DNA of 64,000 nt from an uncultured Bacteroidales bacterium (lineage in GTDB: Bacteria > Bacteroidota > Bacteroidia > Bacteroidales > F082): the NCBI GenBank assembly GCA_946185535.1, contig CAMHJX010000010.1, positions 18,492 to 82,491 on the forward strand, written 5' to 3'. The notes under the pieces are model-generated. The model searched no databases and was not told the origin of the DNA. It saw only the letters and a list, made by a program, of their open reading frames with translations. How positions within the stretch are numbered: the first letter of the stretch is position 1; each line of letters opens with the position of its first letter. Of this stretch, positions 4,956 through 20,376 are shown one piece after another. The position numbers and the translations under genes were made by a program.

Positions 4956-5819
4956 CTATTGTCCCTTTTTCGAGGCCTCTTTGTTTGCCTTGGCTCGATG
5001 CTCATTAAACATATACACCACCCTCAGAGTGATGCTGTTGTTGTACTGGCGTTGCAGGGGTTGCACTCGCGAGTCGTCGGTTTTCAGGAGGGTTTCGTTG
5101 GTGTCTTTGTAGAACAGGCGTGTACGAATGGGCATCAGCGAGTATTGGTAGCGCAATTCAGCATGGATGCCTTCCCAGATGCGGACTCGGGCATCGGCGC
5201 AAATGCAGAAATCGTTGCCTCGATAGCTGTCGGAGTTGGCAATCACTTGTGGAACCAGCTCTTCGATGGCTGCGTCTTGCGGATAGCCCGCCGTATAAAG
5301 CATTTTGGTCAATTCCTTGATGTTGGTTGCTTGGCTGACATCGGGGAGGCCTTCTCTGTCCTCTCTCCAATGGATTTGTCCGTCACCCAAACGGATGGAC
5401 GAGGATTGTCCGTTGATGTATTCTTGGAGTCCGACAATGCGCCCGTATGACACGCCGACGCCGAGGCTATAGCGATCCTTGTCGGTCACATAGATCATCA
5501 CTGGGATTTCGGCATAGTTGAGGTTCAGTTTATAACGCCCCGAATACAGTCCAAGATGGGGGTTGATGGAATCGCCCTTGTAGGCACCTTTTTGGTTGAA
5601 AAGCACCTCAAGGCCGACATCCAACCAGTTGGTGATGGGGATTAAGGCACCGGCACCGACATGGACGCCCGGCTTGCGGTAATGGTAGCATTCGTCGCCG
5701 TCCACTTGGCAAATATTGCCGCCCAAGATCAGTTCGCCTTTGACGATTTGGGCATGGAGCAGGGCAGGAGCGGCCAAAGTGAAGGCCAACAGTAGGGTAA
5801 CTATTCTTAATCTCTTCAT
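4956..5819 (-). CDS. Outer-membrane beta-barrel protein (porin/PorT-like family)
   Basis: Signal peptide MKRLRIVTLLLAFTLAAPALLHAQ, alternating beta-strand pattern and an aromatic C-terminal strand region (ITLRVVYMF). It has its own TATTTTTG box at 5877-5884 (minus). Confidence 0.6.
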   Translation of the reverse strand: MKRLRIVTLLLAFTLAAPALLHAQIVKGELILGGNICQVDGDECYHYRKPGVHVGAGALIPITNWLDVGLEVLFNQKGAYKGDSINPHLGLYSGRYKLNLNYAEIPVMIYVTDKDRYSLGVGVSYGRIVGLQEYINGQSSSIRLGDGQIHWREDREGLPDVSQATNIKELTKMLYTAGYPQDAAIEELVPQVIANSDSYRGNDFCICADARVRIWEGIHAELRYQYSLMPIRTRLFYKDTNETLLKTDDSRVQPLQRQYNNSITLRVVYMFNEHRAKANKEASKKGQ

Positions 5820-5889: not shown

Positions 5890-8304
5890 TCATCGTTGAT
5901 TCAAAATTTGTCCCGATACGCTGTATCGTTTTCCGTCCTTGATGATGACGATGTGTCCGTCTTCGATCACTTTCTGGACAGAAGGCTCTTGGCTTTCCTG
6001 GTTGCCGTTTTCATCAATGCCAAAGTCCGTCTTCACGATGGTGTCGGACCAAATGATTTCCGACTCGACACCGTTGGCGTACACTTCGCTGATGCCGAAA
6101 CGGTATTCTCCAGCTTGAGCCTCATTCCAGGTGTAGTCGATATAGGATGTGCTGGTGACTTCATCTGCCAGCATTAGGCTGTTCCCTTCGCTGTCGGCAC
6201 GATAGATTCGATAGCCCATGATTTGTTCCAGACGGCTCTTGATTTCATAAATGCGAATGGAGAAGCCAATGGCAATAAACATGGCATCTTTGCCATCGTA
6301 TTTCCCAATGTGGGCTCCAACTCCGTAGGTGTAATCCCAGCCTGGATCCATCAAAGGACGGTCCAAGATAATGTTGTTGGTGATGTCATAATCGTAAACT
6401 CCAGTTTCACCTGACAGCAATAAGTGAGGGGTCCCGTCTTTTGCGGTGAAGTAGCCTGAGCCATAGATGGGTTCTGGTGCTGTTGGACTGAACATGATTC
6501 TTTGTCCTTGACGGTCATAAAGGATTGCTTCCTTATTATGGTCAATCCAAAAGCCGTCATATTCAGGGTCGTAGGTCGTTGCCCCGAACCAAATGCCCAT
6601 ATCTATGCTGTCGTTGACAGTTTTGTTGTAAAGGTCTATACTATATAAAACACTGAGTCCTGAACGTACACAATTACTATAAAAGTAAGTCCCATCGTAA
6701 GCAATGCCTAAAGTTTCCGGGACGCCTTCCACATTGAACTTTTCGAGCAATTCTCCATCCATGGTGTATTTTCCGTATGAGAAAGGAGGGTTGTCCCAAT
6801 ATGCGTAGTTGACATAGATGTGTTCGCCGTCGGTGGCCACGCCGCCACATTCCTCATTACTGTCAATTTCCTTGAGGAGGCTCCACTCTGTATCAGCTTT
6901 GCTCCATGAAAGGCTTACACTAGTGCTATTCGGGTTGTTCGCCTCGGGTGAATAACTTGCCGTGATTTGACCAACTGGAAAACCGGAGAAGTAAGCCTCA
7001 ATGTCGAGGATGTCTTCTTCCACGCTAAGGGTTATGGATGGTATGTTGGATATGGTTTCCCCGTTTCTCTTCCAACAATAAAACTGGTAGCCTTCTGCCG
7101 GAATTGCTGTCAAAGTGCATGAATCACCAATATGGTATTCGCCATTGCCATTGATAGCGCCTGCTGTTGATGGATAGGCTGTGGCTTCCACAGCCCAAGG
7201 TTCATATTCTGGATTGATGTCGAGGATGGCGAAGTTTTTTTCGTTAAAGCTATATCCGATCGGATTCAGATGTCCCAAGGCGAAATAGCCGTTGGCGCGA
7301 CCCCATCCCCAATTAAAGTGTAGCAAGTCGTTGCCGTCGTAGCCGTCACAAACGAAGGCATGGCTGCCTTGGCTGCCTTTACCTCCATAGAATACGGGTC
7401 GTTGTAAGTCAAGACAGGCCTTCAGCATCGAAATCCATTCTTCGTCGCTGAAATCACTTCGCTTTTCGATATGGAGCCGTCTTGAATAATTGAAGTAGCG
7501 TATCAATGCATCGGGCACATCTCCTGAATCAGCACCAGAACCGTTGGTGGTATATTGCATGTCAACGGAAACGCCGCAATGGAACAGTAAGGTTGCCACC
7601 GCCTCAACTTCAATGTCGCTGGAATTGTCGGTCAGCGAATCGGGCATGTGATCCCAGTCGTAGACGGTGTTGCCGAAATCAGCGGAAAGTGTGAGGCCCG
7701 CATTGAAATAGGAATGCGACCCCCAGCCAGTTTCCGGATAGCGCCAATAGTGCATAATCTGACCCATGGCCACGGCTACGCAGCCCACTTCGGCATGGCC
7801 ACACGGGACTTTTGAAAAGGTGGGGCAGAGTTCGTTGTAATGGCATCCCTGCTCCCACATTTCGGTCAGCAGGGGCTCAACGGCTGTGGCAGTCTTGCTT
7901 TCGTTGAGCCGCCCAGTGTTCTTCACTAGTTCCCATTGCCTTGCCGTGAGTTCATCCGCTTCAAGATGGTTTTCGATGCCATATTGTATCCTTGCGACGA
8001 AGTCCTGCAAATAGGCCTCCATTTGCACGGGAACGGTGTTCGGGCCGAAACGGCCTTCAAGGGAATAGCCGATGATGGGTGTTTCGCAATCGTCGGCCGA
8101 AACGATGACGAAGCCGTCGTCGGTATTGAAGACATAGAATGCAGACCCACTCTTGTCTGTTCGATAAGTGGAGACTAGTTGCACATCGCTTGCTCCCATG
8201 AACTTGACGGCGATGGATTGCGCTGTTTGCAGGTCGATGGGGCGGGCAGCAGTGCTTAAAAACAACCCGAAAAAGGCGATGCAGAGAAGGGAGATGCGTT
8301 TCAT
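5890..8304 (-). CDS. Secreted C10-family (SpeB/interpain-type) cysteine protease, paralog 1 (variable domain type A)
   Basis: The ATG at 8304 gives MKRISLLCIAFFGLFLSTAARP (the track ORF starts at an upstream TTG, 8337). Spi-type propeptide (FYVFNTDDGFVIVSADD..PIIGYS). Catalytic Cys context GHAEVGCVAVAMGQIMHYW and His context GSHAFVCDGYD..HFNWGWG. Ig-like and Fn3-like modules. C-terminal SVQKVIEDGHIVIIKDGKRYSVSGQ motif. Confidence 0.85.
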   Translation of the reverse strand: MKRISLLCIAFFGLFLSTAARPIDLQTAQSIAVKFMGASDVQLVSTYRTDKSGSAFYVFNTDDGFVIVSADDCETPIIGYSLEGRFGPNTVPVQMEAYLQDFVARIQYGIENHLEADELTARQWELVKNTGRLNESKTATAVEPLLTEMWEQGCHYNELCPTFSKVPCGHAEVGCVAVAMGQIMHYWRYPETGWGSHSYFNAGLTLSADFGNTVYDWDHMPDSLTDNSSDIEVEAVATLLFHCGVSVDMQYTTNGSGADSGDVPDALIRYFNYSRRLHIEKRSDFSDEEWISMLKACLDLQRPVFYGGKGSQGSHAFVCDGYDGNDLLHFNWGWGRANGYFALGHLNPIGYSFNEKNFAILDINPEYEPWAVEATAYPSTAGAINGNGEYHIGDSCTLTAIPAEGYQFYCWKRNGETISNIPSITLSVEEDILDIEAYFSGFPVGQITASYSPEANNPNSTSVSLSWSKADTEWSLLKEIDSNEECGGVATDGEHIYVNYAYWDNPPFSYGKYTMDGELLEKFNVEGVPETLGIAYDGTYFYSNCVRSGLSVLYSIDLYNKTVNDSIDMGIWFGATTYDPEYDGFWIDHNKEAILYDRQGQRIMFSPTAPEPIYGSGYFTAKDGTPHLLLSGETGVYDYDITNNIILDRPLMDPGWDYTYGVGAHIGKYDGKDAMFIAIGFSIRIYEIKSRLEQIMGYRIYRADSEGNSLMLADEVTSTSYIDYTWNEAQAGEYRFGISEVYANGVESEIIWSDTIVKTDFGIDENGNQESQEPSVQKVIEDGHIVIIKDGKRYSVSGQILNQR

Positions 8305-8333
8305 ATTTTTTTTTGTTTTTATTATTATCGTTT

Positions 8334-18240: not shown

Positions 18241-20376
18241 TTACAATTTCATTGTCAAACTAATCCTATTCCTGTTCACATCGACCTCAAGTACTTTCAC
18301 GCGAACCTTTTGGTTCAAATGTACCACTTCGTTCGGGTCTTTGATGTAATGGTCAGCCATCTGGCTGATGTGGACGAGGCCGTCCTGATGCACGCCAATG
18401 TCGACGAAGGCACCGAAGGCGGTGATGTTGGTCACGATGCCATTGAGGACCATGCCTGCGCGCAAGTCCTTGACTTCGCGGATGTTCTTGTCGAATTCAA
18501 AGGCCTCAAAACTTTTGCGCGGGTCGCGGCCAGGTTTGTCGAGTTCGCTGAGGATGTCGTTGATGGTCTCCAAGCCGAAATGCTCTTCTACAAACTCTTC
18601 GGGCTTGATTCTAGCGATGAGTTCCTTGTTGCCGATGAGGTCTTTCACTTTCACGCCCAGTTTCTTGGCCATTTTCTCCACGATGTGGTAGCTCTCGGGG
18701 TGGACGGCACTCTGGTCCAAGGGGTTGTCGCCGTTATGGATGCGCAGGAAGCCGGCACATTGTTCGAAGGCCTTTTCGCCGAGGCGCGGCACGCCATAGA
18801 GTTGTTGGCGCGTCTTGAAGCCACCGATTTCGTCGCGGTAGTGGACGATGTTGTAGGCCAGTGTGGGACCTACGCCGCTCACATACGACAGCAGCTGTTG
18901 GCTGGCCGTGTTGAGTTCCACGCCGACGGCGTTCACGCAACTCTCCACCGTCTGGTCGAGGCTCTCGCCGAGTTTTTTCTGGTCTACATCGTGCTGATAT
19001 TGTCCCACGCCGATGCTCTTTGGGTCGATTTTCACCAACTCGGCCAGAGGGTCCATCAGTCGGCGCCCGATGCTGACCGCGCCGCGCACGGTGATGTCGT
19101 AGTCGGGGAACTCGTCGCGGGCGATCTTGGAGGCGGAATACACCGACGCGCCGCTCTCGCTCACCATCACGGCCATCAGGTCGCGGTCGAATTTGATGCT
19201 GCGGATGAAATCTTCGGTCTCGCGTCCCGCCGTGCCGTTGCCGATGGCGATGACCTTAATGCGGTAGGCATCCACGAGGCTCTTGATTTTGCGCATCGCG
19301 CCCACTGTGTCAGACTTGGGCGGGTGGGGGTAGATGGTTTCGTTGTGGAGTAATGCGCCTGTTTCGCTCAAGACCACCACCTTGCAACCTGTGCGGAAAC
19401 CCGGGTCAATGGCGAGGATGCGCTTCTGGCCCATCGGGGCGGCGAGGAGCAGTTGTTTGAGGTTCTCGGCGAAGACACGGATGGCGGTCTCGTCGGCTTT
19501 CTCCTTATAATAATTACGGATTTCGGTCTCAATGGAAGGTTCCAAGAGGCGTTTCCACGAGTCGGCGATGGCCTCGCGTACGAGTTCCGATGATTCGTTG
19601 TCGTTCTTCAGGAAGATGCTCTCCAAAGAGTTCAGCACGAAGTCGTCATCGACTTTGATTTTCAGTTTCACCATGCCTTCTTCCTCTGCGCGGAACAGGG
19701 CTAAAAGGCGATGCGAGGGCGCCTCGGAAATCGGCTCGCGGAAGTCGAAATACTGCTGGTAGGTCTTGCCTTCCTCTTCCTTGCCTTTGACCACGGCGGA
19801 GCTGATGTCGCCCTGCATGTGGAAGATCTTACGGATGCGGTTGCGTCCATTGATATTTTCCGAGACCCACTCGGCCATGATGTCCTTGGCACCTTGCAGG
19901 GCTTCCTCGATGTCGTTGACACCCTTGCCTGCGTTGACATAGCGTGCAGCGAGGCGGTCCACGAAGTCTACATTCTGCGCCATGATTTGTGCGGCCAGAG
20001 GCTCCAAACCTTTCTCGCGGGCGATGGCGGCGCGGGTGCGGCGTTTAGGCTTGTAGGGCAAATACAAATCCTCAACTTCTTGCAAGGTCTTGGCGTTCAG
20101 TATCTTTTGTTCCAGTTCGGGCGTGAGTTTCTCCTGCTCACGGATGGAGGCAATGACGCTTTCTTTGCGTTTTTGCAGTTCGGTGAGTTGTTCGAGGCGT
20201 TTCTGAACAGCGGCCACATTCTCTTCATTCATAGTGCCTGTCATTTCCTTGCGGTAGCGGGCGATGAAGGGAATGGTGGCACCTTCGTCGAAGAGGCGAA
20301 TGACATTGGCAACATGGTGCGCGGCGAGGTTGAGTTCCTGTGCGATTTGAGTGCTGAAATCTATCGAGTTTGGCAT
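18241..20376 (-). CDS. tex: Tex-like transcription accessory protein (S1 RNA-binding domain protein)
   Basis: 711 aa. N-terminus IAQELNL..HVANVIRLFDEGATIPFIARYRKE.TG, YqgF/RuvX-like and HhH regions, and a C-terminal S1 domain (GMVLNGIVTNITAFGAFVDIGVHQDGLVHISQM). Confidence 0.9.
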   Translation of the reverse strand: MPNSIDFSTQIAQELNLAAHHVANVIRLFDEGATIPFIARYRKEMTGTMNEENVAAVQKRLEQLTELQKRKESVIASIREQEKLTPELEQKILNAKTLQEVEDLYLPYKPKRRTRAAIAREKGLEPLAAQIMAQNVDFVDRLAARYVNAGKGVNDIEEALQGAKDIMAEWVSENINGRNRIRKIFHMQGDISSAVVKGKEEEGKTYQQYFDFREPISEAPSHRLLALFRAEEEGMVKLKIKVDDDFVLNSLESIFLKNDNESSELVREAIADSWKRLLEPSIETEIRNYYKEKADETAIRVFAENLKQLLLAAPMGQKRILAIDPGFRTGCKVVVLSETGALLHNETIYPHPPKSDTVGAMRKIKSLVDAYRIKVIAIGNGTAGRETEDFIRSIKFDRDLMAVMVSESGASVYSASKIARDEFPDYDITVRGAVSIGRRLMDPLAELVKIDPKSIGVGQYQHDVDQKKLGESLDQTVESCVNAVGVELNTASQQLLSYVSGVGPTLAYNIVHYRDEIGGFKTRQQLYGVPRLGEKAFEQCAGFLRIHNGDNPLDQSAVHPESYHIVEKMAKKLGVKVKDLIGNKELIARIKPEEFVEEHFGLETINDILSELDKPGRDPRKSFEAFEFDKNIREVKDLRAGMVLNGIVTNITAFGAFVDIGVHQDGLVHISQMADHYIKDPNEVVHLNQKVRVKVLEVDVNRNRISLTMKL

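Follow-up and report, generated by a model that had tools for sequence, protein, structure and literature searches.

In Staphylococcus aureus, the paralogs of the tandem lipoprotein cluster lpl each contain a conserved region that acts as the site of recombination, and their variable regions are shuffled (Tsuru & Kobayashi 2008, PMC2568036). In Porphyromonas gingivalis, the adhesin domains of the gingipain and HagA genes have been rearranged and subject to allelic exchange (Dashper et al. 2017, PMC5266723), and the C10 proteases of Bacteroides fragilis (Bfp) are described, in the part of the source cited here, as spread on mobile elements (Thornton et al. 2010, PMC2873492). Here we describe a 64-kb stretch of one metagenomic contig from an uncultured rumen Bacteroidales bacterium (the window; no Ns, 48% G+C), which carries five protease genes, p1 to p5, all on the minus strand and tightly packed in tandem at 5890-18121. 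On the basis of their profile matches, the products are assigned to peptidase family C10 (streptopain/SpeB-like), and all share one domain order: signal peptide, Spi propeptide, Peptidase_C10 domain, Ig-like B-repeat, beta-propeller, FN3-like domain and conserved tail. The five genes form a mosaic of identical tracts, which we read as the outcome of homologous recombination among the paralogs and not of chance or constraint. General homologous recombination between tandem paralogs is, in our judgement, the probable explanation of the array in the window, and we hold this reading with greater confidence for the wider gene family to which the array belongs.

Identical tracts among the five genes

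A maximal exact match search returned four tract pairs, A to D (Table 1), as the four longest exact repeats of the window, the fifth longest measuring 83 bp; BLASTN at ≥97% identity merges these tracts into longer alignments of lower identity. The original prediction for this DNA had listed the same four pairs (894, 730, 389 and 282 bp), and they are exact: none contains a mismatch and none can be extended by one base on either side. The near-identity that it reported beyond tract C, to about position 7690, is also present (480 bp with 3 mismatches, 7211-7690 against 9685-10164), as is the sharp divergence outside the tracts, where identity drops to 85-90% in the N-terminal half and to 40-65% in the C-terminal half. 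These values are those of the background between copies, with about 85-90% nucleotide identity for the enzyme half and 40-65% for the propeller. That every gene is a mosaic of segments shared with different partners goes too far for p3, which is absent from all four perfect tracts; p3 is a mosaic relative to two genes of related loci, L052_g2 and L047_g3.

In p4, only 10 bp separate tract A from tract B. Upstream of tract A the gene belongs to another sequence type, and its final 135 nt again depart from p1 (81-87% identity). The junction from B to A is patchy, with p5-like sequence followed by three p1-like sites, one p5-like site and then p1-like sequence. Of the four tracts, A alone follows a domain module; B, C and D start or end within the catalytic domain. 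In addition to the 480-bp tract of p1 and p2, graded tracts are found in p5/p1 (335 bp, 2 mismatches), p5/p4 (896 bp, 9 mismatches), p3/p2 (238 bp, 8 mismatches) and p5/p3 (104 bp, 1 mismatch). These are older, partly decayed tracts, and the pattern is the one expected from repeated events.

Table 1. Positions in the window of the C10 protease genes, of the spacer between Tex and p5, and of both copies of each identical tract
Feature	Coordinates	Strand	Remarks
p1	5890..8304	-	804 aa from ATG; last gene of array; alpha-type propeller; orthologous to L052_g4
p2	8334..10778	-	814 aa from ATG; delta-type propeller
p3	10805..13231	-	808 aa; gamma-type propeller
p4	13259..15667	-	802 aa; mosaic: L043_g2-type N-terminal 1370 nt, alpha-type propeller/FN3 patch, tail of other origin
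p5	15692..18121	-	809 aa; first gene of array; beta-type propeller (ORF; Pfam I69, C10 and B-repeat matches)
Tex-p5 spacer	18122..18240	-	119 nt; carries TATTTTTG element, Bacteroidetes -7-like TAnnTTTG
Tract A in p1	6031..6924	-	894 bp; aa 472-769; whole propeller + FN3-like module; = 13394-14287
Tract A in p4	13394..14287	-	aa 461-758; internal patch, non-p1 sequence on both sides
Tract B in p4	14298..15027	-	730 bp; nt 641-1370, aa 214-457; second half of C10 + B-repeat
Tract B in p5	16752..17481	-	730 bp; offset 2454 bp from p4 copy
Tract C in p1	7211..7599	-	389 bp; aa 247-376; second half of C10; extends to 7690 with 3 mismatches
Tract C in p2	9685..10073	-	389 bp; extends to 10164 with 3 mismatches
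Tract D in p1	7778..8059	-	282 bp; aa 93-187; propeptide end to C10 start; extends to 8112 with 2 mismatches
Tract D in p5	17595..17876	-	282 bp; aa 82-176; extends to 17929 with 2 mismatches

Sliding-window identity along the alignment of the five genes recovered the same mosaic, with blocks of identity at about columns 300-500 (p1 and p5), 750-1050 (p1 and p2), 700-1350 (p4 and p5) and 1450-2300 (p1 and p4). The longest concordant runs at polymorphic sites were 568, 254, 95 and 51, against permutation maxima of 54, 25, 16 and 22 (p≤5e-4 for all four pairs), and the pairwise homoplasy index (PHI) of the enzyme half was 0.18, against 0.38 +/- 0.012 in permuted data (p≤5e-4). Synonymous divergence (dS) is 0 inside the tracts and about 0.45-0.7 in the protease half of tract-free pairs; in the propeller outside the tracts, dS is saturated and nonsynonymous divergence (dN) reaches 0.4-0.55. 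Because dS is 0 within the tracts and about 0.5 in neighbouring codons of the same pair, selection at the protein level fails to explain the identity. Moreover, p1 is identical to p5, p2 and p4 in three successive segments, so that no duplication tree fits, and p4 is identical to two partners. The run permutation, the dS of 0 and PHI all bear out the recombination among paralogs that had been predicted. Classical concerted evolution, that is, homogenization of the N-terminal half within a genome, finds weak support: the best identity of this half within a genome is about equal to the best between genomes. A shared recombining pool is the better description.

The design of the genes suggests how such a mosaic could arise. 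A conserved enzyme half (signal peptide, Spi propeptide and catalytic domain) is joined to a C-terminal propeller/FN3 half, presumably for targeting, which exists in diverged types. With the enzyme half on one side and the conserved 3' tail, spacer and 5' start of the next gene on the other, long homology flanks every propeller. RecA-type gene conversion, unequal crossing-over between these direct repeats and exchange with related lineages have then probably copied patches between paralogs, moved whole propeller cassettes between slots and changed the copy number. The four perfect tracts would be the youngest of these events. In this scheme, p1 was probably the source of three of them: p4 took over the p1 propeller (tract A), p2 a part of the p1 catalytic domain (tract C) and p5 the junction of propeptide and catalytic domain (tract D). 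Tract B would be common to p4 and p5 because both derive from a single L043_g2-type gene. For tracts A and C, p1 is the likely donor because it matches L052_g4 in its position in the last slot, in its alpha cassette and, at 97-100%, in the tract C region; it is probably the donor of tract D as well. The placement of tract A as an internal patch of p4 is what non-reciprocal conversion would predict. We infer the direction of transfer, the recombination enzymes, co-transcription and the role of the propeller in substrate or ligand targeting.

Propeller cassettes in related loci

Recombination in this gene family is real at the population level, because the same propeller types are found in other orders, and on other N-terminal backgrounds, in independent assemblies. 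The 139 complete genes of 78 loci contain 27-35 propeller types, which are discrete, with 88-100% nucleotide identity within a type across lineages and 45-60% between types. In the window, the propellers follow the order beta, alpha, gamma, delta, alpha. In the related loci the order is epsilon, gamma, delta, alpha (L052); epsilon, beta, eta (L043); alpha, epsilon, zeta (L042); gamma, beta, alpha (L135); and delta, alpha (L055). The number of C10 copies is accordingly four in L052, two in L055 and three in L042, L135 and the loci L043-L051, the last coming from nine samples. At the protein level, the alpha-type genes of many samples present many different combinations of N-terminal segments. 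Moreover, the beta gene of L135 bears the B-repeat that is linked to alpha in the window, an independent case with a different junction.

The flanks of the syntenic relatives are 88-95% identical to those of the window. Across lineages with such flanks, propeller cassettes are 98-100% identical. For the orthologue pairs p1/L052_g4 and p3/L052_g2, the enzyme half shows 5-25 differences per 100 nt, against only 0-5 for the propeller. It is the enzyme half that is being scrambled; the cassettes are almost the same in lineages with flanks 5-12% different. The window (15099-17382 and 18042-18338) is connected with the nine samples of L043-L051 by exact matches of 1769, 608 and 297 bp, although in the genes beside the array (Tex, methyltransferase/RimM) identity reaches only 88-90%; flank identity is itself patchy there (79-99% per 200 bp). 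By this contrast, propeller cassettes and the Tex-p5 spacer look as if they had recently been exchanged between lineages.

In three of four arrays linked to Tex, the first gene begins MKRTIILCIAFFGLLLSTAARP, at 18056-18121 in the window, from 10001 in L042 and from 3383 in L043. This start is found whatever the propeller type (beta, alpha or epsilon), so that the 5' end follows the slot in the array rather than the cassette. The genes that follow the OEP gene in L052 and L055, and the first gene of L135, begin MNKLTNILSL.

In a comparison of L055 4263-6710 with L052 2589-5057 and 7538-9976, one gene, L055_g1, has the form of a hybrid, being 100% identical to L052_g1 up to about nt 480 and 100% identical to L052_g3 from there on, with the join in a 64-bp identical stretch. 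The array thereby has two copies in place of four, with an identical last gene alongside. Either a deletion by unequal crossing-over or the mis-joining of short reads accounts for the hybrid. Finally, some array copies in related metagenome-assembled genomes (MAGs) are split by a frameshift into two open reading frames (ORFs), one N-terminal of about 120-190 aa and one with the rest (L003 5264-9970, from RUG11691, and L019 7542-12281). The split marks either a pseudogene or an error of assembly at a site prone to recombination.

Protein architecture and gene neighbourhood

All five products match Peptidase_C10 (PF01640, E=5e-61 to 6e-63) over the full profile (positions 1-194 of 194), and all five carry the propeptide Inhibitor_I69 (PF13734, E=1e-16 to 1e-19); Pfam also identifies the B-repeat as InlB-type. 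Cys175 and His315 (p1 numbering) are invariant across a 56-sequence alignment that includes the five paralogs. They lie in a GCVA..A and a GSHAFVCDG motif, respectively, and we take them to be catalytic by analogy with SpeB. Each of the five genes is a complete ORF that opens with a start codon and encodes a signal peptide, the propeptide and the catalytic residues, and neither the array nor its flanks contain a frameshift or an N. The products are apparently active proteases. The ORFs called mechanically for p1 and p2 begin at upstream TTG codons and reach 8337 and 10808, respectively; the homologous ATG (MKRISLL...) is the start of both proteins in the public protein collection, which lists the proteins under a single contig of 111,100 bp.

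No family of Pfam or NCBIfam matched the C-terminal 350 residues. An AlphaFold (AF2) model, built on an alignment of 56 homologues, gives an all-beta C-terminal half at a predicted local distance difference test (pLDDT) score of about 85-93. With this half, Foldseek retrieved beta-propellers, for example 1l0q (YVTN propeller + PKD) and Lp49, and with the N-terminal half the SpeB zymogen 1dki (28-30% identity), the propeptide part of the model having low pLDDT. The predicted propeller spans about aa 460-690 and the predicted FN3-like domain about aa 695-760. The protein ends in a nearly invariant tail of 25 aa (K-V-I-E-D-G-H-I-V-I-I-K-D-G-K-R-Y-N-V-S-G-Q; e.g. 5890-5985 and 13259-13350), which is common to p1-p5 and to all family members in loci L002-L099. 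It forms three short strands in the model and matches no profile, including that of the C-terminal sorting domain of the type IX secretion system (T9SS). For this sorting domain, NCBIfam gave no match in the proteins and Pfam only an internal trace of CHU_C in p5 (E=3.2). The tail may be an undescribed sorting or anchoring signal. As a general sorting tag it was rejected, a motif search on unrelated proteins having returned members of the C10 family only.

The family counts more than 2,900 homologues at E≤1e-50. The closest species-representative genomes are RUG MAGs, with at most 77% amino acid identity, and in a scan of the metagenomes of the Joint Genome Institute (JGI) the nearest strain reached 89%, with none closer. 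The literature on C10 and propeller arrays in Bacteroidales yielded nothing specific.

The spacers within the array are A-rich and only 24-29 nt long, and the Tex-p5 spacer is the sole one with room for a promoter. The Bacteroidetes -7 promoter consensus is TAnnTTTG, and by its fit to this consensus the element TATTTTTG in the Tex-p5 spacer is a promoter-like candidate. The short spacers and the single promoter-like element suggest that the five genes form one operon and are probably co-transcribed. A sigma-70 promoter and terminator scan was uninformative (29 sites against 21 expected), the promoter type being wrong for Bacteroidota.

Downstream of the array, the syntenic loci have a gene for a 287-aa outer-membrane protein (OMP) beta-barrel, followed by a methyltransferase and RimM; upstream lies Tex in most lineages and an OEP gene in L052 and L055. 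Other neighbours are ArsP_2, a TonB receptor, HAD and YjeF. The OMP beta-barrel gene (PF13505, E=1e-6; 4956-5819, minus strand, directly downstream of the array in the window) adjoins the array in every examined syntenic locus that reaches past it, and its product might work together with the proteases, for instance by displaying them on the cell surface. A thiamine pyrophosphate (TPP) riboswitch is found at 2043-2153 on the minus strand (RF00059, 56.3 bits, E=2e-8). By synteny with L043 and L052, it lies upstream of a gene for a TonB-dependent receptor of about 807 aa that runs off the window start, and this receptor would be a thiamine-regulated outer-membrane transporter.

Alternative explanations and known systems

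The alternative that survives best, although we consider it unlikely, is an assembly artefact: a graph loop walked once, or strains joined or polished together, which would concern above all tract B and the fifth gene, the true genomes having three or four copies and no long intragenomic repeats. Its strongest ground is the pair p5/p4. Together, p4 nt 1-1370 and p5 nt 641-2430 rebuild L043_g2 with 2-3 differences (p5 nt 641-2430 has 1 mismatch to it), despite flanks that are only 88-95% identical, and L043_g2 is found intact in nine independent samples. The two copies of tract B are 2454 bp apart, which is exactly the length of L043_g2 (2430) plus a 24-nt spacer. In L043, the gene end, spacer and gene start form a 93-bp exact repeat, which would close a loop for k<93. 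The p5/p4 pair is therefore equivalent to one extra, cyclically permuted g2 copy inserted at tract B. Compared with L043_g2, p5 and p4 look like reciprocal recombinants at this tract, and the structure would result from a real duplication with conversions, a reciprocal exchange at B, an assembly loop or a strain join. Models with a single unequal crossover, tried by hand, were rejected, since the hybrids that they yield have the wrong orientation if no additional copies are assumed for the ancestor. This leaves, for the pair, conversion, a g2 duplication with later conversions, or an artefact.

Several further points weigh against recombination as the source of the array in the window. The evidence from the window rests on one metagenomic contig. 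The cyclic copy is 99.9% identical to a gene found intact in nine other samples while the flanks reach only 88-95%, which requires an artefact or else a transfer between lineages in the very recent past. Among the propellers of one array, amino acid identity never exceeds 55% in the 41 other multi-copy loci, so that the duplicated alpha type is unique to the window, which is also the sole five-copy array. Contigs of related MAGs often end at C10 arrays. Finally, the support from L055 comes from a short-read assembly, and with its junction in a 64-bp identical stretch it could be a mis-join. Exact repeats between paralogs in the short-read MAGs of the relatives do not exceed about 100 bp; this lack of longer repeats is no evidence either way, because short-read assemblies could not retain them, nor a duplicated propeller of this kind.

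Other observations are hard to reconcile with an artefact. A plain de Bruijn unitig cannot hold exact repeats of 282-894 bp, and we therefore infer that the assembler drew on further data, probably long reads or read pairs, to resolve the contig. The B-to-A junction of p4 shares only about 8 bases and cannot be a k-mer join of the present p5 and p1 sequences; being patchy, it is what would be expected of heteroduplex repair and not of a graph join. Even without the loop, tracts A and D shared with p1 and tract C of p1 and p2 would remain. The array and flanks contain neither Ns nor frameshifts, and mosaicism is independently present in many other assemblies.

A far less probable explanation, to which we give little credence, is programmed antigenic or specificity switching by a specialised mechanism such as pilE/pilS, vlsE, shufflons or diversity-generating retroelements (DGRs). 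The variable part is indeed a discrete fold of a surface-type binding kind, the beta-propeller, in many types; several tracts without a substitution suggest events frequent relative to mutation; and cassettes are 98-100% identical across lineages with flanks 5-12% different. However, systems of the pilE/pilS type need one expression locus and silent partial cassettes, and the array has no silent, truncated or promoterless donors. The likeness to antigenic or specificity-variation cassettes proposed in the original prediction thus fails, since in place of an expression site with silent donors there are five complete genes, with short spacers and one promoter-like element. All copies are co-oriented, which excludes inversion shufflons. 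No recombinase, reverse transcriptase or invertase was found among the called neighbours of the syntenic loci, a survey that did not extend to small elements of the G-quadruplex (G4) type. No site is common to the tract ends, and the catalytic domain is interrupted by the borders of three tracts. For the same reason, the proposal that catalytic, propeptide and binding modules are shuffled is right in one part only: tract A follows a module, but the three other tracts cut through C10. Least tenable, and with next to no probability, is the absence of recombination, the tracts being left from very recent whole-gene duplications or kept by purifying selection: the genes are indeed tandem duplicates with a functionally constrained catalytic half, but this is refuted by the sliding-window mosaic, the run permutation, dS and PHI, the identity covering all synonymous sites and p1 having three identical partners and p4 two, which no duplication tree yields.

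Recombination between tandem gene copies is a well-known mechanism, and the perfection of the tracts in one contig still needs confirmation at the read level. If the assembly is faithful, the window is an unusually clean snapshot of recombination among tandem paralogs, with four events without later mutation next to older graded tracts, and copy number varies from 2 to 5 among close relatives. The analysis also defines a large undescribed rumen family of C10 proteases of about 800 aa, whose propeller halves behave as exchangeable cassettes. Cassette exchange may be a route by which abundant uncultured rumen Bacteroidales diversify the targeting of their proteases. More speculatively, and with low probability, the array could be a 'specificity library', in which a conserved head is combined with a pool of at least 27 propeller targeting cassettes shared across rumen Bacteroidales lineages. 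On this equally tentative view, cassettes would spread from lineage to lineage at a higher rate than other parts of the genome, being 98-100% identical where flanks are 88-95%, and strains would thereby keep re-tuning their protease targets. A parallel would be the displacement of C-terminal cassettes in polymorphic toxins, here in proteases that serve digestion or competition. For metagenomics, the array carries a warning: arrays of this kind break or mis-join short-read assemblies, and copy numbers and mosaics in MAGs need long reads.

The Bfp proteins and SpeB (1dki) share with the window proteins the C10 family and a propeptide of the Spi/I69 type, but they are roughly half as large and have no B-repeat, propeller or FN3 extension. 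In the part of the source cited here, no conversion mosaic between paralogs is described for the B. fragilis proteases (PMC2873492). No staphostatin-like inhibitor gene lies between the C10 copies of the window, which are only 24-29 nt apart. The opa genes of Neisseria are several complete, expressed paralogs whose hypervariable segments are reassorted by intra- and inter-genomic recombination, and they are a better functional analogy to the C10 array than pilE/pilS. The opa loci are dispersed and phase-variable through repeats, whereas no phase-variation repeats of this type were seen in the C10 array.

The gingipains come from the same phylum and, like the C10 proteins, are secreted cysteine proteases with C-terminal non-catalytic binding domains in discrete variants. 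In both, the mosaic of variants is unrelated to the genome phylogeny and arises via recombination and exchange between strains. However, gingipains belong to family C25 and not to C10, and their loci are dispersed and encode a T9SS C-terminal domain and adhesin domains rather than propellers, whereas the C10 array is tandem and no T9SS domain was detected in its products. The lpl cluster and the C10 array both consist of tandem secreted or surface paralogs in which every copy contains a conserved stretch as the site of homologous recombination and variable regions are shuffled, and in both the copy number and order vary between strains. In both, moreover, the gene end, spacer and start of the next gene move as a unit, for which the exact matches of 93 and 1769 bp that span the p5/p4 spacer may be compared. 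The conserved region of lpl lies in the centre and is flanked by variable ones, whereas in the C10 array the N-terminal two-thirds are conserved and the C-terminal propeller is variable. Unlike in lpl, the gene-end/spacer/next-gene-start unit is not conserved between the window and L043, and the C10 array consists of Bacteroidales proteases known only from metagenomes. The C10 array is best read as a case of ordinary homologous recombination between tandem paralogs, like that of lpl or of the gingipain adhesin domains, and not a dedicated variation system.

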